Assembly (NCBI GenBank): GCA_965208535.1
Contig: CBDBOU010000002.1
Location: 2,883,701 to 2,947,700 of the forward strand
Length of the DNA: 64,000 nt
Origin: Vicinamibacterales bacterium
Lineage (GTDB): Bacteria > Acidobacteriota > Vicinamibacteria > Vicinamibacterales > UBA8438
Direction: 5' to 3'
Positions 6,999 to 60,509 of the stretch are shown here, piece by piece (position 1 is the first letter of the stretch; each line of letters begins with the position of its first letter). The position numbers were made by a program, and so were the translations under genes. The notes under the pieces are model-generated. The model searched no databases. It was not told where the DNA came from and saw only the letters and a program-made list of their open reading frames with translations.

Positions 6999-7106
6999 CA
7001 GCGCCCCGAAACCCCTCGCCGGCTCGGCGTTTCGGCTCATCCCCTCCGCTCCATGAGCCTGCGCCGCAGAACGCAACGGAGCGCGTTCTGCGGCGCGGCC
7101 TGCTAG
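6999..7106 (-). repeat. Composite palindromic repeat R1 (two hairpins), starting at the hemE stop codon
   Basis: The reverse complement CTAGCAGGCCGCGCCGCAGAACGC..GCGTTCTGCGGCGCAGGCTCATGGAGCGGAGGGGATGAGCCGAAACGCCGAGCCGGCGAGGGGTTTCGGGGCGCTGG aligns at roughly 80% by eye with 60401-60509. Confidence 0.7.
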
Positions 7107-8125
7107 CTGCACTCGTGCACGAAACGCGCGAGGGTCTGGACATGCGAGACGGGGGTCTCCGGGAGGATGCCGTGGCCGAGGTTGAAGATGTGGCCCGCCC
7201 GTCCCCCGGCGCGCTGCAGCACCTCCTCCGCCCCGGCGAGCAGGCGGTCGATGCGTCCAAGAAGCAGCGTCGGGTCCAGGTTTCCCTGCACGGCGCGATC
7301 CGTTCCGATGCGCGCCCATGCATCGTCCAGCGGCACGCGCCAGTCGACACCGATGACGTCGCCCCCGGCTTCGGTCATCGCCTCCAGCAGGGTGGCGGTG
7401 CCCGTGCCGAAGTGCAGCACGGGCACGCCGGTTGCGGCGACCGCGCTCAGCACCCGCCGGGTGTGGGGCAGTGCGAACTCGCGGTAGTCACCCGGGCTGA
7501 GTGCCCCGACCCAGGAGTCGAACACCTGTATGGCCTGCGCGCCGGCCTCGACCTGGGCTACCAGGTAGTCGGCCACCGCCTCGGACAGCTTCTCGCACAG
7601 GCGATGCCAGGCGTCCGGCTCGCCGTACATGAGGGCCTTGGTTCGGGAGTAGTGGCTCGAAGGGCCGCCTTCGACAGCGTAGGACGCCAGCGTGAACGGG
7701 GCGCCTCCGAAACCGATGAGGGGCACCCGGTCGGCGAGCTCGCGCCGCAGCAGCCCGATGGTCGCGAGCACGTGGCCGAGCGATTCGCGCGGCTGGAGCG
7801 TCCGCAGCCGGTCGATGTCGCCCGCCGTGCGGAGCGGCTCGTGGATGACGGGTCCTTCGCCCTTGACGAAATCGAAGGGGATCCCGAGCGGCTCGAGAGG
7901 CAGGAGCAGGTCCGAGAAGAGGATGGCGGCGTCGACGTCGATCCGGTCGACGGGTTGCAGCGTCACCTCGGCGGCCAGCTCCGGCTGCCGGCAGATGTCG
8001 AGCAGGGAATGCCGCTGCCGAATGGCGCGGTACTCGGGCATGTAGCGCCCCGCCTGGCGCATGAACCAGACCGGCGTGCGGTCGACCGGTTCGCGCCGGC
8101 AGGCGCGCAGGAATCGATCGTTCAC
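7103..8125 (-). CDS. hemE: Uroporphyrinogen decarboxylase
   Basis: N-terminus MNDRFLRACRREPVDRTPVWFMRQAGRYMPEYR is the canonical HemE signature; 340 aa. Confidence 0.95.
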   Translation of the reverse strand: MNDRFLRACRREPVDRTPVWFMRQAGRYMPEYRAIRQRHSLLDICRQPELAAEVTLQPVDRIDVDAAILFSDLLLPLEPLGIPFDFVKGEGPVIHEPLRTAGDIDRLRTLQPRESLGHVLATIGLLRRELADRVPLIGFGGAPFTLASYAVEGGPSSHYSRTKALMYGEPDAWHRLCEKLSEAVADYLVAQVEAGAQAIQVFDSWVGALSPGDYREFALPHTRRVLSAVAATGVPVLHFGTGTATLLEAMTEAGGDVIGVDWRVPLDDAWARIGTDRAVQGNLDPTLLLGRIDRLLAGAEEVLQRAGGRAGHIFNLGHGILPETPVSHVQTLARFVHECS

Positions 8126-10101: not shown

Positions 10102-11220
10102 ATGACGGACGCCAGACGACAGAAGCGCGACTCCCGTCCGTCCGGGCTGGTCCTGTTCCTGGTCTCGCTCGGTGCGTTCTTTCTCGCGCTCGGCCGGGTG
10201 CCCGATCCGAACCCGACGCCGGCGGCGATTCCGCCTGGCGCGGCACTCGAGCCGGTTTCGGAGTCGGCGCCGGAACCGCCTTCTCCGGCAGGGCCGGAGG
10301 CGGCCCCGGTCGAGGCCGCAACCACCGCACCGGCCCTCGCCGCAACGTCGGTGGCGGGCTCTACGGCCGCGCCGGAAGTCGTTGCGGAGGCTGGGCCCGA
10401 GCCGCCCGCGCCGCGGATTCGCGACATCGGCGACCTGCGGCGACCTAGGATCCGGGCCGCCGCGGGCATGCTCTACAATCCGCGCACGGACGAGGTCCTC
10501 TGGGAGAGACGCGGTCTGGACCAACGTCCCATCGCCAGCATCACGAAGGTGATGACGGCCCTCGTGCTGCTGGACCAGGAGCCGGAGCTCTCGCGGGACG
10601 TCGTCGTCTCGCGGCGCGACGTGCGCCGGGCCTCGACCACCTACCTCGCACGCGGCGAACGGGTCACGCTCGATGCGCTGCTGCACCTGGCGCTCATCGC
10701 GTCGGACAACGTCGCGGCGCGCATACTGGCCCGTGCGTCGGGTTGGGGCACACGCCGCTTCGTGGAGCAGATGAATCTGAAGGCGGCGGCGCTGGACCTG
10801 CACGGCACCAGCTTCGTCGAGCCGTCCGGGCTGGACGAGCGCAACGTGTCGACGCCGTACGACATCGCCCGTCTGATAGCGGTAGCCGGCGAGGTGCCTG
10901 CGCTGTCGCGCATCATGCGCAAATGGACGCATCGCCTGCGCACCGATCGGCGCCGGATGAACATTCGCAACACAAATCGGCTGCTCCGGTCCCCGCACGC
11001 CATCCAGGGCGGAAAGACCGGCTACATCGACGAGGCCGGGTTCTGCCTCACCGCTCTGGTCGAGCTGCCCGGCGCCGATCCGATTGCGCTGGTCGTGCTC
11101 GGGGCCGGCTCCAACGCGGGGCGCTTCAGCGAGGCCCGCCGGCTCATCGACTGGGTCTCGACGACGGGCCGTTCACTGCTCGAGCCCGAGGAGCGCGTAA
11201 CCAGGGAGTCTGCACAGTAG
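10102..11220 (+). CDS. D-alanyl-D-alanine carboxypeptidase (S11 serine peptidase) with a TM anchor and a Pro/Ala-rich linker
   Basis: The motifs SITK, SDN and KTG occur in the expected order. The start is ambiguous (10078 or ATG 10102). The last codons (RESAQ-stop) lie in a half copy of the hairpin-B repeat. Confidence 0.8.
   Translation: MTDARRQKRDSRPSGLVLFLVSLGAFFLALGRVPDPNPTPAAIPPGAALEPVSESAPEPPSPAGPEAAPVEAATTAPALAATSVAGSTAAPEVVAEAGPEPPAPRIRDIGDLRRPRIRAAAGMLYNPRTDEVLWERRGLDQRPIASITKVMTALVLLDQEPELSRDVVVSRRDVRRASTTYLARGERVTLDALLHLALIASDNVAARILARASGWGTRRFVEQMNLKAAALDLHGTSFVEPSGLDERNVSTPYDIARLIAVAGEVPALSRIMRKWTHRLRTDRRRMNIRNTNRLLRSPHAIQGGKTGYIDEAGFCLTALVELPGADPIALVVLGAGSNAGRFSEARRLIDWVSTTGRSLLEPEERVTRESAQ
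11201..11220 (+). repeat. Half copy (5' arm) of hairpin-B repeat, covering a stop codon
   Basis: CCAGGGAGTCTGCACAGTAG compares with CCAGGAGTCTGCGCCGTAG at 37325 and at 57243 (minus strand). No clear 3' arm follows. Confidence 0.4.
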
Positions 11221-11307
11221 AAGCGGCGACGACGCCTGGCTGGCCCGCGACGCGGCGCGACCGCGGGGCCACCGCCGTCGAGGGGGCACGGAGGGAAGAA
11301 CGCACCC

Positions 11308-12282
11308 ATGCGAGAAGTGATCATCATCGGGTCGGGACCCGCGGGTCTGACGGCCGCTCTCTACACCGCGCGGGCCAACCTGAAGCCGTTGCTCATCGAG
11401 GGTCTGGAGTCGGGGGGACAGCTCATGCTGACCACCGACGTCGAGAACTACCCGGGATTCCGCGACGGCATCCTCGGACCGGCTCTCATCGGCGAGATGC
11501 GGGCGCAGGCCGAGCGGTTCGGCACGGAGATCGTGCAGGGCGACGTGACGGCTCTCGATCTTCAGGGGCCGCCGTTCCGGATCGCCACCAGCGGCGGCGG
11601 CTACGAGACGCGGGCGCTGATTCTCGCGACCGGGGCGTCCGCGCGGCTGCTGGGGCTCGAATCCGAGCGGGCCCTGATGGGGCACGGCGTGTCGACCTGC
11701 GCCACCTGCGACGGCTACTTCTTCCGCGGCAAGCCGATAGTGGTGGTCGGCGGCGGCGATTCGGCGATGGAGGAGGCGACGTTCCTGACGAAGTTCGCGT
11801 CCGAGGTGACCATCGTGCACCGCCGCGACGCGTTCCGCGCGTCGAAGATCATGCAGGACAAGGCGCGCGCCAATCCGAAGATCTCGTTCGAGCTCGACAC
11901 GGTGGTGGACGAGGTGCGCGACGTCGACAAGGGGGTCGTCACCGGCGCCGTCCTGCGCAACGTCAGGACGGGCGCGGTCAAGGAGCTCGCCGTGGAAGGC
12001 GTCTTCGTCGCCATCGGGCATATCCCGAACACGAAGCTGGTCGAGGGGCGGGTGAATCTCGACGCGAACGGCTACATCGTGCCCGTCCGGGGAACGGCCA
12101 CCAACGTGTCCGGCGTGTTCGCCTGCGGCGATGTGCAGGACCACGTGTACCGGCAGGCGATTACCGCCGCCGGATCCGGGTGCATGGCGGCCATCGACGC
12201 CGAGCGCTACCTGGAGAGCCTGCCCGCCGAGGGGCCGCGGGCGGTCGGGGCCGTCTCCGCCCACCAGGAGTCTGCGCGGTAG
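11308..12282 (+). CDS. trxB: Thioredoxin-disulfide reductase
   Basis: [15 protein letters not shown] motif, CATCDG redox centre, 324 aa. The last 5 codons plus the stop lie in a hairpin-B repeat. Confidence 0.95.
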
Positions 12283-12325
12283 AACCGTGCGGACGCCGAG
12301 TCGGCGAGGCGTTTCGGGGCGCCGG
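12264..12325 (+). repeat. Hairpin-B repeat followed by the distal R1 module
   Basis: CCAGGAGTCTGCGCGGTAGAACCGTGCGGAC, then GCCGAGTCGGCGAGGCGTTTCGGGGCGCCGG. It sits between convergent trxB and mnmA. Confidence 0.6.
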
Positions 12326-12357
12326 GTGCGCCGCCGCAAGACGGGCCGGTCCGGCGT

Positions 12358-14654: not shown

Positions 14655-14709
14655 CGTAGCCCGAAAACCGTCGCCGGTGGCTCCGTTTTTGGCCCAACCC
14701 CAGACCTCT

Positions 14710-14746
14710 CCGGGAGTCTGCACCGCGGAACCGTGCAGACTCCCGG
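14710..14746. repeat. Hairpin-B family copy (perfect 14-bp stem) in a divergent intergenic region
   Basis: CCGGGAGTCTGCAC-cgcggaacc-GTGCAGACTCCCGG. The flanking intergenic DNA also carries R1-like fragments (GGAGCGGAGGGGAT at 14856-14869). Confidence 0.7.
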
Positions 14747-36104: not shown

Positions 36105-37343
36105 ATGGCGCTGGTCGCGCTCGGCGTCAGCGGCGGGATAGGGGCGTACAAGGCGGTCGAGGTCGCCCGCGGGCTCCAGCAGCGCGGGCACGACGTGGCC
36201 GTGGCGATGACGGCCAACGCACGGCGGTTCGTGGGGCCGTTGACGTTCGAGGCGATTACCGGGCGCCGGGTCGCGGCCGATCAGTTCGCGCCCGGGGTGA
36301 ACTCCGACATCGACCACATCGCCCTGGCCTCGACGATCGATCTCCTGCTGGTCGCCCCGGCCACCGCCAACGTCATCGGCAAGTTCGCGAACGGGATTGC
36401 CGACGACTTCCTGTCGTCGCTGTACCTCGCGACCACCGCACCGGTGCTGGTCGCCCCGGCCATGAACACCAACATGCTCTCGCACGCCGCGGTTCGCGCG
36501 AACCTCCACACGCTGGACGCGCGAGGCGTCCGTTTCGTCGAGCCGGGCGACGGCTATCTCGCCTGCGGCTGGGTGGGGCCCGGCCGGCTGGCGGAGCCCG
36601 AGGCGATCGTGGAGGCGGCGGACGGACTTCTGCGCGGCGGCGGCGCTTGGGCGGGGCGCTCGATTCTGGTGACCGCCGGCCCGACCTGCGAGGATCTCGA
36701 TCCGGTTCGCTTTCTGGGTAACCGGTCGACCGGGCGCATGGGTTACGCGGTGGCGGCCGAGGCGGCCGCGCGTGGCGCGCGCGTCATGCTGGTCAGCGGG
36801 CCGACCACGCTCGATCCACCGGCCGGGGTGGAGGTGACCGCGGTGCGCAGCGCCGACGAGATGTACGCGGAGGTCGTCCGGCTGGTCTTCGCGGGCAAGG
36901 TGGACGCGGTGGTGATGGCGGCGGCGGTGGCGGACTATACGCCCGCCGCGGGTGCGCAGCGCGCCAAGATCCGGAAGTCCGACGACGACCTGGTGCTGGC
37001 GTTGCGCCGTACGCCGGACGTTCTGGCGGAGCTGGGGGCGCGGCGCGGGAACGCGGCGAAACCGGTGCTGGTCGGTTTCGCGGCCGAAACCGGCGATGCG
37101 GTGGAGCGGGCCCGCGCGAAGCTCATCCGCAAGCAGGTCGACATGGTCGTCGCGAACGACGTGACCGAGCCGGGAGCCGGCTTCGGAGTGGACACGAACG
37201 TGGCGACGCTGGTGAGCGCCGAGAGCAGTGAGCCGGTCTCGCGGCGGTCGAAGCGGGATCTCGCCCGCGTGATTCTCGATCGGGTCGAGGCGCGCCTGGG
37301 CGTATCTCGATCGACTGCGGGACGCCAGGAGTCTGCGCCGTAG
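36105..37343 (+). CDS. coaBC: Bifunctional phosphopantothenoylcysteine decarboxylase / phosphopantothenate-cysteine ligase
   Basis: GVSGGIGAYK, PAMNTNM, TAGPT.E.LDPVRFLGNRSTGRMG. The last codons RQESAP-stop lie in a hairpin-B repeat. Confidence 0.95.
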   Translation: MALVALGVSGGIGAYKAVEVARGLQQRGHDVAVAMTANARRFVGPLTFEAITGRRVAADQFAPGVNSDIDHIALASTIDLLLVAPATANVIGKFANGIADDFLSSLYLATTAPVLVAPAMNTNMLSHAAVRANLHTLDARGVRFVEPGDGYLACGWVGPGRLAEPEAIVEAADGLLRGGGAWAGRSILVTAGPTCEDLDPVRFLGNRSTGRMGYAVAAEAAARGARVMLVSGPTTLDPPAGVEVTAVRSADEMYAEVVRLVFAGKVDAVVMAAAVADYTPAAGAQRAKIRKSDDDLVLALRRTPDVLAELGARRGNAAKPVLVGFAAETGDAVERARAKLIRKQVDMVVANDVTEPGAGFGVDTNVATLVSAESSEPVSRRSKRDLARVILDRVEARLGVSRSTAGRQESAP

Positions 37344-37412
37344 CAACGGCGCAGAGCTCCTGGCCAGGCCAGGTTGGGCGGCAATCGGAGCCGCAGGCGA
37401 CGATTGTCGGGC
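37325..37412 (-). repeat. Hairpin-B plus module-D repeat
   Basis: CCAGGAGTCTGCGCCGTAGCAACGGCGCAGAGCTCCTGG, followed by CCAGGCCAGGTTGGGCGGCAATCGGAGCCGCAGGCGACGATTGTCGGGC. The latter is the reverse complement of 57158-57205. Confidence 0.7.
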
Positions 37413-37421
37413 GAGGAGTCC

Positions 37422-38314
37422 GTGGTGCCGGACCGCGATCAGGTCGTCGAACACCTGAAGTTCTTCGGAGAGCTCGGTGCGGAAGGGATCAGCCGGGATC
37501 CGCGCTGGCGCACCCGTCCCTGCGAGCAGGGGACCGGCGGAACGCGGCACGGCGTCGAGAGCGATGCCGCGGAGATTGGCGGTGCGTTCGCCGATTCGCA
37601 GGCGACGGCGGCTTCCGATCCGGAGCAGGCGAGGGCAGGGTCCCCCACCCGTGCGGCGCGACCGGCCGCGGACCCGCCGGTCGAGCTCACGCCGTCGTGG
37701 ACCAGCGACTCGTTGTGGGACGCTCCGGCGGCGGCGCAGGGGGCGGGCGATGTCGCGCCGACCGAGCGCTTGCGGAGCATCCGGGACGAGCTGGGCGACT
37801 GCACGCGCTGCAGGCTGCACGGCGGGCGCTCCCATCTGGTGTTCGGCGTCGGCAGACCGGACGCGGAGCTCATGTTCGTCGGCGAGGCGCCGGGGCGGGA
37901 CGAGGACCTGCAGGGAGAGCCGTTCGTCGGCCGGGCCGGACAGTTGCTGACGAGGATCATCGAAGCGATAGATCTGCGGCGCGAGGATGTCTACATCGCG
38001 AACGTCATCAAGTGCCGTCCACCACAGAACCGCAATCCGGAACGGGACGAGGTCGAGACCTGCCGTCCGTTTCTCTTCGCACAGATCGATGCGGTCCGGC
38101 CGCGGGTCGTCGTCGCCCTGGGATCGTTCGCGGTTCGCACGTTGCTCGACGACGATCGCCTGCCCATCTCCAGGGCTCGCGGCCGGGTCTACGCGTGCCG
38201 GGGGGCGAAGCTCGTCCCCACGTTTCATCCGGCCTTCCTGCTGCGGAGTCCCGATCGCAAGCGCGACGTCTGGGAGGACATGAAGCGGGTGCGCTCCCTC
38301 CTGCGCGGCGACTG

Positions 38315-43873: not shown

Positions 43874-44902
43874 ATGCATCATCGATCCCGATGGCTTCCT
43901 TCCGTCGCGGCGGTCGTGATGGCCGCGGGCGTCTGGCTGATGCCGGGCGCCGTCGAGGCGCAGGCGTCCGGCGTGGCGCAGGAAGCGGAGTCCTACACCG
44001 TCCCGCGGACCGCCGACGGGCATCCCGACCTGCAGGGATTCTGGACGAATCAGACCTATACGCCGCTGGAGCGGCCGGAGGGCGTGGACAAGGCCTTCTA
44101 TACCGTCGAGGAGGTGGCCACGATCGAGTCGGGCCGGGCCTCCCGCGAAGCGGAGCTGACCGTTCCCGGCACGATTCCCGACGTGCACTACGACTTCACG
44201 CAGTTCGGGCTCGACCGCAGCCAGTCGCCGTTCGCGCGCAACCTGCGCACCTCCCTGATCGTCGATCCGCCCGACGGCCGGATGCCCCCGGTCAACGCCG
44301 AGGGACGCCGGCGCGCGGCCGAAGCGGCGGCCGAGCGCGAACGGGTGGGACGCTGGGATTCGGCCGAGGCCAACCAGCTCGACGACCGCTGCATCATCAT
44401 GCGCGGCGCCGGTCCGCCGATGATGAACGCCGGCTACAACGCCAACTACCAGGTCGTCCAGAACCGCGACTACGTGATGATCCTGGTGGAGATGATCCAC
44501 GACGCGCGCATCATCCCGCTGGACGGCCGCCCGGCGCCTCCGGAGCCGGCGCGGCAGTGGATGGGCATGTCCCGCGGCCGCTGGGAGGGCGACACGCTGG
44601 TGGTCGAGACGACCAACATCAACGGCAAGAATCCGTTCAACGGATCGAGCGATCGGATGCGCGTCACCGAGCGCTTTACCCGCGTGGCGGACGACACCAT
44701 CATGTACCGGTTCACGGTCGACGATCCGCTGACGTGGGACCGGCCCTGGACGGCCGAGATGCCGATGAAGGAGACCATCGGCCCGCTGTTCGAGCACGCG
44801 TGTCACGAGGGCAATTACGGCCTGTACAACACCCTGGTCGGGGCGCGCCTCGAGGAGCAGCGGGCGGCCGAGGCGGCCGCGGGAGAGGAGTCGCAAAGAT
44901 GA
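43874..44902 (+). CDS. Secreted protein of unknown function (paralog A)
   Basis: ATG 43874 follows GGGGAGGAG. A signal peptide ends AVEAQA. Conserved blocks are shared with the next gene: YTVPRTADGHPDLQGFW, RGRWEGDTLVVETTN, VTERF..DDPLTWDRPW. Confidence 0.7.
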   Translation: MHHRSRWLPSVAAVVMAAGVWLMPGAVEAQASGVAQEAESYTVPRTADGHPDLQGFWTNQTYTPLERPEGVDKAFYTVEEVATIESGRASREAELTVPGTIPDVHYDFTQFGLDRSQSPFARNLRTSLIVDPPDGRMPPVNAEGRRRAAEAAAERERVGRWDSAEANQLDDRCIIMRGAGPPMMNAGYNANYQVVQNRDYVMILVEMIHDARIIPLDGRPAPPEPARQWMGMSRGRWEGDTLVVETTNINGKNPFNGSSDRMRVTERFTRVADDTIMYRFTVDDPLTWDRPWTAEMPMKETIGPLFEHACHEGNYGLYNTLVGARLEEQRAAEAAAGEESQR

Positions 44903-45735
44903 AGGCGCTTCCGACGAGACCGCACCGGCTGTTCGCGTGGGCCGTGACGGCTGCCCTGGCGGGGGTCGCGTTCGGACTTCTTCCAGGAGCCGCGGTTGCC
45001 CAGGAAACCGGCTACACGGCGCCCCGTACGGCGGACGGGACGCCCGATCTGAACGGGATCTGGCAGGCCCTGAACAACGCGCACTGGAACGTCGAGCCCC
45101 ACTCGGCGGACTTCAGTCCGGTGCGCGAGCTCGGTGCGCTCGGCGCGGTTCCCGGCGGACTCGGCGTGGTGGAGGGCGGCACGATTCCGTACACGCCCGA
45201 GGCCCTGGAGCAGCGCGACGACAACTTCGCCAACCGCCTGGAGCGGGATCCGGCCATCAAGTGCTACCTGCCGGGCACGCCGCGCGCCACCTACATGCCG
45301 TATCCGTTCCAGATCATCCAGAGCCGCTCGCACATCATGATCATCCACGAGTTCGCCGGCGCGGTACGCACGATCTACATGGAAGATCAGATGGAGTCGC
45401 CGGCCGATACCTGGATGGGGTGGTCGAACGGACGTTGGGAGGGCGAGACGCTCGTGGTCGAGACGAGCGGCTTCTACGGGGAGACGTGGCTCGATCGGGC
45501 GGGGAACCATCACAGCACGGCGCTGCGCGTCGTGGAGCGGTTCACCCCGCGCAGCCCCGAGACGCTGGACTACCACGTGACGCTCGAGGATCCCAACGTC
45601 TACACCCGCCCCTGGAGCATGCGCATGCCGCTCTACCGGCGGGTGGAGCCGGACGCGGAGCTGATGGAGTTCCGCTGCGTCGAGTTCGTCGAGGATCTCA
45701 TCTACGGGCATCTTCGCAAGAAGGTGGATCAGTAG
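44899..45735 (+). CDS. Secreted protein of unknown function (paralog A')
   Basis: The ATG overlaps the upstream TGA. A signal peptide ends AAVAQE. Blocks: YTAPRTADGTPDLNGIW, NGRWEGETLVVETSG, WLDRAGNHHSTALRVVERF, LEDPNVYTRPW. Confidence 0.7.
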   Translation: MKALPTRPHRLFAWAVTAALAGVAFGLLPGAAVAQETGYTAPRTADGTPDLNGIWQALNNAHWNVEPHSADFSPVRELGALGAVPGGLGVVEGGTIPYTPEALEQRDDNFANRLERDPAIKCYLPGTPRATYMPYPFQIIQSRSHIMIIHEFAGAVRTIYMEDQMESPADTWMGWSNGRWEGETLVVETSGFYGETWLDRAGNHHSTALRVVERFTPRSPETLDYHVTLEDPNVYTRPWSMRMPLYRRVEPDAELMEFRCVEFVEDLIYGHLRKKVDQ

Positions 45736-57091: not shown

Positions 57092-57243
57092 GCGCAAGGT
57101 TATGGAGCGGCGGGATGGGCCGAAACGCCGGAGCGGGGAGGCGTTTTCGGGGCGCTGGCCCGACAATCGTCGCCTGCGGCTCCGATTGCCGCCAACCGGG
57201 CCTGGCCAGGAGTCTGCGCCGTTTCTACGGCGCAGACTCCTGG
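57092..57243 (+). repeat. Composite repeat: R1 distal hairpin + module D + hairpin B
   Basis: GCGCAAGGTTATGGAGCGGCGGGATGGGCCGAAACGCCGGAGCGGGGAGGCGTTTTCGGGGCGCTGG (as in 60440-60509), then GCCCGACAATCGTCGCCTGCGGCTCCGATTGCCGCCAACCGGGCCTGG (reverse complement of 37364-37412), then CCAGGAGTCTGCGCCGTTTCTACGGCGCAGACTCCTGG. Confidence 0.75.
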
Positions 57244-59777: not shown

Positions 59778-60404
59778 ATGAACCTGCCGAACACGCTTAC
59801 GTTGGCCCGGATCTTCCTCGTCCCGCTGCTGGTCGTGGTCTTGCTGACAAGGTTCGAGGCCGAGCGCATCTTCGGCATGCCGAGGGAGCTTCTCGGCGCG
59901 GTCATCTTCGGCACCGCCGCACTCACGGACTGGCTCGACGGCTATCTCGCCCGCCGCCGCGGGCAGGTGACGCAGCTCGGTCAGCTCATGGATCCGCTTG
60001 CCGACAAGCTGCTCATCACCGCCGCCCTCGTGTCGCTGGTCCAGATGGGAATGGCATCGGCCTGGATGGTCGCCGTCATCCTCGGACGGGAGCTGGCCAT
60101 CACCGTGTTCCGCAGCCTCACCTACACGCGCGGCGTGACGATTCCCGCGTCGTCCCTCGGCAAGGTGAAGATGGTCACGCAGGTGATCGCCATCCTGCTG
60201 CTGATTCTCGGCAACCAGGTCTGGCTGTTCTGGCTGCTGGGCCAGGCAGCCCTGTGGCTGGTGCTGGTAGCGTCGCTCTGGTCCGCCGTGGACTACTACC
60301 GCCGGTTCGGCGGTGTGCTGGCCCATTCGAAGGCGGCCCATCTCGATGCGCCGTCGTCTCGGGTCGACGACGCCATCGAGAAGAAGAGCGCCAACCTCGG
60401 CTAG
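59778..60404 (+). CDS. pgsA: CDP-diacylglycerol-glycerol-3-phosphate 3-phosphatidyltransferase-like
   Basis: NLPNTLTLARI.., and the TDWLDGYLARRRGQVTQLGQLMDPLADK motif. The TAG stop lies in the first 4 nt of repeat R1. Confidence 0.85.
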   Translation: MNLPNTLTLARIFLVPLLVVVLLTRFEAERIFGMPRELLGAVIFGTAALTDWLDGYLARRRGQVTQLGQLMDPLADKLLITAALVSLVQMGMASAWMVAVILGRELAITVFRSLTYTRGVTIPASSLGKVKMVTQVIAILLLILGNQVWLFWLLGQAALWLVLVASLWSAVDYYRRFGGVLAHSKAAHLDAPSSRVDDAIEKKSANLG

Positions 60405-60509
60405 GAGCTTGCGCCGCGGAACGCAGCGCAGCGGAGTGCTGCAGCGCAAGGTCATGGAGTGGGGGGGATGGGCCGAAACGCCGCGCCGGCGAGGCGTTTC
60501 GGGGCGCTG
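60401..60509 (+). repeat. Composite palindromic repeat R1 (full copy)
   Basis: CTAGGAGCTTGCGCCGCGGAACGC...GCAAGGTCATGGAGTGGGGGGGATGGGCCGAAACGCCGCGCCGGCGAGGCGTTTCGGGGCGCTG. The second hairpin is CCGAAACGCC/GGCGTTTCGG. Confidence 0.75.

Follow-up and report, generated by a model that had tools for sequence, protein, structure and literature searches.

IS630- and IS5-type elements use TA and CTAG as insertion targets. Closest to the repeat described here are two groups of small elements that touch the ends of genes. The termini of GTAG-tagged REPs often supply the TAG stop codon of a flanking open reading frame, and some copies are translated (Di Nocera et al. 2013, PMC3733652). The Coxiella MITEs QMITE1 and QMITE2 overlap gene 3' ends and extend them (PMC5896051).

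We analysed a 64,000-nt stretch of DNA (the window; C2:2883701-2947700 of G000, an 8.40-Mb, 68.7% G+C genome in three contigs) in which a palindrome, hairpin B, overlaps the stop codons of unrelated genes. Hairpin B is likely to be the 5' module of a mobile, non-autonomous, TAG-targeting repeat of ~90 nt found in Vicinamibacterales soil bacteria. It resembles the GTAG REPs and BIMEs (PMC3733652) in being a short G+C-rich palindrome with tens to hundreds of copies, mostly 3' of genes, in occurring in mosaic arrays and in having termini that provide a TAG stop. It differs from them in its tag, CTAG (or CCAG/CCGG), in consisting of a fixed, oriented pair of different hairpins spanning ~90 nt, in having no RAYT that we could find, and in a second, in-frame TAG in the loop that yields a uniform pentapeptide tail. 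With bacterial MITEs it shares non-autonomy, presence/absence polymorphism and C-terminal overlap with protein extension, and some young insertions have (C)TAG on both sides, as a short target duplication would leave; unlike them, it has ends without inverted repeats, no parent insertion sequence that we could find and a strong sense bias. REP termini acting as TAG stops are already known, and what we describe is a variant of small palindromic mobile repeats with a uniform tail. A text search of the literature returned no paper on Vicinamibacterales repeats.

Hairpin B belongs to a two-hairpin unit

The original prediction was of a 38-nt repeat, forming a perfect hairpin at both 37325 and 57206. 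The latter copy (57206-57243) is indeed a perfect 16+16 palindrome, CCAGGAGTCTGCGCCG-TTTCTA-CGGCGCAGACTCCTGG. The former (37325-37363) has an identical 5' arm but a 3' arm (CGGCGCAGAGCTCCTGG) that is one base longer, making it imperfect; its orthologue in G012, a 99%-identical genome, is a perfect palindrome. Allowing up to three mismatches, the window contains 11 occurrences of the hairpin arm; shuffles predict 2.6, and none of 100 reached 11. The length of 38 nt had to be given up: the 39 nt adjoining each hairpin are also common to both copies (37377-37415 and 57155-57193, 97% complementary), and BLAST and profile searches define a unit of ~90 nt. Hairpin B is the first 37 nt of this oriented two-hairpin repeat and is not free-standing.

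The consensus of the unit (BLAST, then a profile HMM built from the alignment) begins CYRG-GAGTCTGCGCCG-TAGAA-CGGYGCAGACTC-CYRG, followed by TCAGGCCCGGTTGG; its second part is hairpin 2, GCGGCAATCG-GAGCCGCAGGCGA-CGATTGTCGGGC, then C-N-A-G and frequently GAG. We number positions x1-x90, with the foot at x1-4, the loop TAG at x17-19 and the 3' tetranucleotide at x86-89. Foot and loop TAGs lie 15 nt apart and so share one reading frame. Hairpin 1 is a 37-nt G+C-rich palindrome with a 16-bp stem whose foot reads CCAG, CCGG, CTAG or CTGG, and GTAG is present in the loop only. The stems are followed by TCAGGCC and CNAGGAG, respectively. The commonest right end is CGAG, which is no simple derivative of TAG. 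Only hairpin 1 is internally inverted; the two ends of the whole element are not inverted repeats (left, GAGTCTGCGCCG; reverse complement of the right end, GCCCGACAATCG). A second two-hairpin family, R1, shares the anchor CTAGGAG. The relevant features of the window are as follows.

6999..7106, minus strand: full R1 copy; its leading CTAG is the stop of the uroporphyrinogen decarboxylase gene (hemE; 7103..8125, minus)
11201..11285, plus strand: decayed full element between the Peptidase_S11 gene (stop 11218-11220, the loop TAG) and trxB
12264..12333, plus strand: truncated hairpin 1 with decayed 3' arm; loop TAG 12280-12282 is the TrxB stop
14657..14746, minus strand: diverged full element (54 bits) in a divergent intergenic region, sense to a class-V aminotransferase gene
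37325..37416, plus strand: full element separating coaBC from the following gene; CAG (37326-37328) occupies x2-4, and CoaBC stops at the loop TAG, 37341-37343
45733..45735, plus strand: empty target, the TAG stop of gene 44899..45735; filled in G012
57100..57153, plus strand: 3' half of R1, tail-to-tail with the 3' end of the phosphomannomutase (PMM) copy and sharing CTGG/CCAG (decayed CTAG)
57154..57243, minus strand: full element behind PMM, comprising hairpin 1, spacer (TCAGGCCCGG...), hairpin 2 (GGCGGCAATCG..CGATTGTCGGGC) and a CCAG end
57206..57243, minus strand: hairpin 1 of the PMM copy, with perfect 16-bp arms and minus-strand loop TAGAAA; TAG 57227-57225 is the PMM stop
60401..60509, plus strand: full R1 copy with 5' anchor CTAGGAG; a CDP-alcohol phosphatidyltransferase gene stops at its TAG, 60402-60404

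The PMM copy is matched by nhmmer at C2:2940942-2940856 (model positions 2-88, 80 bits). Gene identities were confirmed by Pfam. CoaBC (ending at 37343, plus) and PMM (57225, minus) share the ending RQESAP-stop, terminating in the loop; the tail of TrxB is HQESAR-stop and that of the Peptidase_S11 protein TRESAQ-stop, so that all four tails proposed earlier are in place, with small corrections. What had been taken for a half copy at 11201-11220 is a decayed full copy: at this site G001 has the element intact, G006 lacks it (TAGGAGTCCC-ATG) and G002 has a decayed version, as does G000. The supposed diverged copy at 12264 does contain hairpin 1, but joined to the CCGAAACGCC..GGCGTTTCGG tail module of the second repeat family, R1. 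The copy reported at 14710 proved to lie in a divergent intergenic region as described, and others occupy divergent or convergent spacers too; the likely ATG of the class-V aminotransferase gene is 4 nt beyond its end (CGGGCTACG-ATG). The 3' end of the coaBC copy, GGGCGAGGAG, directly precedes a GTG at 37422 or 37425. Its GAGGAG (in the region 37413-37427) stands 3-6 nt 5' of these two in-frame GTGs of the next gene, and the AGGAG, whether element-derived or duplicated, is probably the ribosome-binding site of that gene.

Copies end genes, in the sense orientation

A profile search of the contigs found 91 element copies (E<1e-4). Their positions were compared with 6309 genes, called with a codon log-odds caller trained on long ORFs, for which start sites are approximate. 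Copies with an intact 5' end number 84, and 82 of these lie between two called genes. Sixty of the 84 have a co-oriented upstream gene, whose stop ends at x19 in 20 cases, at x3-4 in 16, at x7 in one and 5' of the element in 23; in 36 of the 60, then, the stop is either the foot TAG (x2-4, 16) or the loop TAG (x17-19, 20). A TAG at x2-4 ends the protein at the foot; with CAG or CGG there, translation adds Q/R-E-S-A-P before stopping at the loop TAG. The tails of the 20 genes in the x19 class are QESAP (five), RESAP (five) and ten variants, QESVS, QGAVP and RESPT among them. One five-residue tail is in this way written on ~20 unrelated proteins of the genome. Convergent genes contribute further: 7 of 22 use the CTAG at the 3' end of the element, read on the other strand, as their stop.

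Between tandem genes the element is sense in 47 cases and antisense in 8 (P=8e-8). Chromosome strand makes no difference (46 plus, 38 minus; the GC skew of the contigs is positive throughout). Sixty-two copies have a co-oriented downstream gene, and for about a quarter of these the likeliest start lies ~5-15 nt past the terminal (N)AGGAG. Copies are also present in divergent and convergent spacers. In other genomes (8-kb and 3-kb loci), the stop falls at x4 (16) or x19 (6) in 22 of the 27 co-oriented ORFs next to a copy. The association with stop codons and the orientation bias suspected from the window are both strong across the genome, and recur in these other genomes.

One orthologue of a stop-overlapping site (locus L117, G005:C3:376790-377190) holds an element copy that lacks the loop TAG; there translation runs on through 12 codons (QGSAPENGADPW) and stops at a TGA where hairpin 1 ends.

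Copies 90-99% identical to the consensus are present in 13 of 14 species of the genus searched and in three other genera of the family, and copies in different species occupy different loci. A consensus search did not find the element in the congener G013, nor in 16 genomes of other families. In the GTDB species collection, the only genomes that match hairpin 2 exactly are Vicinamibacterales or Acidobacteria MAGs.

Element-free orthologues reveal the origin of the tail

CoaBC had a match in 25 relatives; of these, G012 alone has the element behind the gene, as G000 does, an occupancy of 2 of 15 genomes within the genus. In 12 other species of the genus CoaBC ends ...A(G/R)S-stop, the native stop aligning with x2-4, and the next gene begins 5-20 nt on (for example tcgTAGgagcgcgtgGTG in G014). 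In relatives that share the gene downstream of coaBC, its start is a few to a few tens of nucleotides past the CoaBC stop.

We located orthologues in five congeners for 19 stop-overlapping sites, TrxB, the S11 peptidase and two genes adjacent to R1. Most other sites are empty in four or five of the congeners. A TAG in the exact x2-4 register is found in element-free orthologues at ~16 of 18 informative sites, against a TAG share of 31% among stops genome-wide (binomial for 15 of 17, P=1.6e-6). PMM orthologues end ...IRR-TAG and TrxB orthologues ...SAGQ-TAG. The suggestion that elements insert at native stop codons is borne out by these TAGs and by sites that are polymorphic between 99%-identical genomes. 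Its companion, that the insertions replace the last residues of the protein, fits two sites only, where the element sits on a CAGGAG or GAGG inside the gene, which serves a downstream gene that overlaps it as Shine-Dalgarno region, and the last 5-8 residues have been replaced. Elsewhere the outcome is mostly a five-residue extension past the native end. These data demonstrate insertion site, register, polymorphism and the origin of the tail.

Could QESAP be a functional, conserved C-terminal peptide, such as a tag or sorting signal, with the hairpin incidental? The pentapeptide is common to at least 10 unrelated proteins of the genome, as such a signal might be. Its orthologues say otherwise: CoaBC, PMM, TrxB and 15 others in related species have no such tail and end five residues earlier, orthologues in other lineages also lack QESAP, and the tail co-varies with the DNA repeat, being present only where the foot TAG is lost. 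We give this idea practically no credence; judged from the alignments, QESAP is usually an extension and never a conserved peptide.

The foot itself differs between copies and element-free orthologues. Copies of the x19 class have CC at x1-2 where element-free orthologues have G-T, a change from GGG TAG to GGC CAG or from CGG TAG to CGC CAG seen at no fewer than five independent sites. In copies with a TAG foot the 3' arm is mostly CTGG, giving a T.G pair. We infer that the TAG became CAG either through the element's own CC foot or by correction of the foot against the 3' arm CTGG after insertion. TAGGAG or TAGGGAG stands at eight of ~20 empty orthologous sites, a hint of either an extended target or footprints of excision; footprints reading TAGGAGTC after precise excision would account for the TAGGAG at 'empty' sites.

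Recent insertions at CTAG

Comparison with the 99%-identical G012 provides filled and empty versions of single sites. In G012 a 185-nt composite of element and R1 occupies the very TAG that ends window gene 44899..45735 and has TAGCGG on either side; the site is empty in G000. Another G012 copy of the element occupies a CTAG with which a convergent gene ends; its left junction is TGG and its right junction TAG. In G000, R1 has inserted at the 3' CTAG of two element copies (...GGGC TAG[...]TAG...), and an IS1182-type MITE then inserted at the next CTAG; the two R1 insertions and one IS1182-type MITE have (C)TAG on both sides. As read from their junctions, these filled/empty pairs show current mobility and a (C)TAG target.

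The putative target duplication would be TAG or CTAG. A 6-bp duplication of TAGGAG was considered and rejected, a clean recent insertion having TAG-TTC at its right. In older copies the putative duplicated positions x2 and x87 are uncorrelated and, since the commonest right end is CGAG, a simple TAG duplication misdescribes them.

Insertion sequences interrupt two G000 copies whose G012 counterparts are intact: a 2.09-kb insertion (C3:1255243-1257333) lies within the hairpin 1 loop of one, and a 1.46-kb insertion (C2:2873759-2875219) has removed hairpin 1 of the other.

A scarce tetranucleotide shared by several families

CTAG is depleted 11-fold in this genome (2146 observed, 24233 expected), and 420 of the 2146 are C-TAG stop codons; insertions into other intragenic CTAGs would be lost to selection. 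TTAA is also under-represented, 10-fold.

Several other repeat families follow the (C)TAG rule. The 160 R1 anchors of the genome comprise 78 CTAG, 40 CCAG and 20 CCGG, and 31 have a stop at x4. At the two R1 sites next to the CDP-alcohol phosphatidyltransferase gene and hemE, orthologues in most congeners have a stop in the same register which is TGA; the identity of the stop codon is changed along with R1 insertion at both genes. An IS1182/IS5-like insertion sequence of 1.49 kb (TIR CAGCCCGTGG; at least 10 copies, including C2:3239548-3242796, C3:198042-201290 and eight or more others) is flanked by CTAG, as are ~158-bp MITEs (for example C1:156275-156433). CTAG lies 5' of 108 of 401 IS1182-type termini, including those of MITEs, the rest being mostly CCGG, CCAG or CTGG. 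Many of these termini begin directly past a TAG stop.

Among feet of the element CCAG is far commoner than CTGG. The genome encodes two pairs of a Vsr mismatch endonuclease and a C5-methylase (C3:3016225-3017939 and C2:15762-17267). Such pairs could conceivably drive decay of CTAGG to CCAGG, a hypothesis that leaves the CCGG and CGAG ends unexplained.

Search for a mobilising enzyme

No mobilising enzyme or transposase partner emerged from checks for Y1 transposases, a split parent, insertion-sequence termini and IS1182-like elements. The genome has one Y1 transposase gene (PF01797; C3:2233030-2233474, minus), IS200-like and flanked on both sides by CCCCGGCTTTGCCGGGG hairpins; these are unrelated to the repeat families studied, and there is no element within 8 kb. 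Mobilisation by a RAYT was rejected on this ground, the sole Y1 being an ordinary IS200 with other hairpins. A split parent was likewise rejected: no 5' half and 3' half pair up within 6 kb, and none flank an ORF. No insertion sequence has the hairpin arms as termini or TIR, and solo arms 0.6-3.5 kb apart enclose ordinary genes such as an MFS transporter. A gene bracketed by inverted element copies may, by eye, encode a deoxyhypusine-synthase-like protein. The IS1182-like insertion sequence was dismissed as mobiliser because its TIR is different and its transposase is absent from the carrier G002 and present in the non-carriers G013 and G022. A heteroduplex left by a tyrosine recombinase, with one host-type and one element-type junction, was also set aside, the classes being alike at x86-89.

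Set against established classes, the element has the high-copy, mainly extragenic imperfect palindrome of a REP (16-bp stem, 91 copies). It has neither the conserved GTAG (or CGTC) at the end of the palindrome nor the single-copy Y1 (HUH) transposase flanked by repeats. Like a MITE it is polymorphic for presence at orthologous sites; terminal inverted repeats and an autonomous parent insertion sequence with the same termini are both lacking. Insertion is not tied to the lagging-strand template (46 versus 38), as it is in IS200/IS605-derived PATEs. A G+C-rich hairpin with a U-run, the mark of a Rho-independent terminator, is found at neither window copy. In Rfam 15 only tRNAs reach the gathering threshold, and the best matches on the element have E>4, a permissive search included. 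By the defining tests the element is not a REP moved by a RAYT, not a classical MITE and not an IS200/IS605 derivative.

Folding and alternative explanations

The predicted fold is stronger in the sense than in the antisense strand for two window copies (-59.3 versus -52.9 kcal/mol and, for the PMM copy, -70.7 versus -66.0) and for the consensus (-58.9 versus -47.9), an overall sense advantage of 5-11 kcal/mol, and hairpin 2 forms in the sense strand only. Stems contain 238 G.U against 98 A.C pairs, together with compensatory pairs such as 56-80 (C-G 55, A-T 14). This asymmetry is compatible with a sense strand that folds, be it as RNA or single-stranded DNA, or with inheritance from master copies.

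One might then regard the element as a selected RNA module, either a 3' mRNA stabiliser or processing site or an intercistronic cassette bringing a stop, two hairpins and, for the next gene, the Shine-Dalgarno-like AGGAG, whose position at stops reflects function and not insertion preference. Besides the sense-only hairpin 2, the excess of G.U pairs and the compensatory changes, the 47:8 orientation in tandem pairs, the starts ~5-15 nt past (N)AGGAG at about a quarter of 62 downstream genes and the 90-99% identity of copies across species to the consensus all lend this weight. Occupancy tells against it: CoaBC is filled in 2 of 15 genus genomes, most sites are empty in four or five congeners, and a congener without any copy implies that the element is dispensable. 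The TAG stop, often with a start 5-20 nt on, was already there before insertion; copies also lie in divergent and convergent spacers, and there is neither a U-run terminator nor an Rfam family match. Because genes are not consistently occupied and the family is missing from one congener, the stop-codon pattern cannot be caused by an RNA function. Selection for a stop plus a hairpin, as the original prediction also offered, is not needed for a pattern in which genes already had their stop, G013 has no copies and no U-run follows the stems. We regard the RNA module as an unlikely explanation; since both hairpins would be part of transcripts at gene 3' ends and the sense strand has the stronger modelled fold, insertion may incidentally influence mRNA decay in the way that REPs do. 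Much less likely again is a REP/BIME family moved by a RAYT, like the proteobacterial GTAG-tagged REPs, a reading to which the 37-nt G+C-rich, high-copy palindrome of hairpin 1, the mosaic arrays with other palindromic modules, the GTAG in the loop and the published REP termini supplying TAG stops (PMC3733652) lend some plausibility. The end tag, however, is CTAG/CCAG/CCGG and not GTAG, the single Y1_Tnp gene is IS200-like with unrelated CCCCGGCTTTGCCGGGG hairpins at its flanks, and no replication-strand bias is seen.

The account we favour, a mobile repeat inserting at TAG, has one difficulty of its own. CTAG is palindromic and cannot alone explain the 47:8 sense bias. Strand-specific homing to an asymmetric target, TAG plus a Shine-Dalgarno-like GAG or GGAG, would jointly explain this bias, the TAGGAG or TAGGGAG at 8 of ~20 empty sites and the CC foot that replaces host G-T. 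The target might be read by pairing with the foot of the 3' arm (CTCCTR), a DNA-guided choice, or through a link to transcription. We would put the chances of homing low, slightly under those of the RNA module.

A model for insertion, and its meaning

In the mobile-repeat account, the element integrates at (C)TAG and survives mostly where the TAG is the stop of a gene. Insertion is overwhelmingly in the sense orientation, placing the host TAG at x2-4, where the stem begins. About half of the copies that overlap a stop have CAG or CGG at this position, and the ribosome then reads Q/R-E-S-A-P and stops at the loop TAG. Candidate routes to a corrected foot are template switching at the quasipalindrome and T:G repair, for which Vsr and C5-methylase pairs are present. 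Because the element brings an in-frame back-up stop, losing the host stop would be harmless.

For annotation, this means that dozens of genes per genome in a widespread soil order have their last five codons and stop inside a repeat, and that the C-termini of close strains can differ by the presence of the repeat alone. The target is unusually narrow: a tetranucleotide that is rare and, where G+C content is high, persists chiefly in stop codons. Several families, with hundreds of copies between them, have a single anchor in common, and these genomes lend themselves to studying the spread of palindromic repeats for which no transposase can be recognised.
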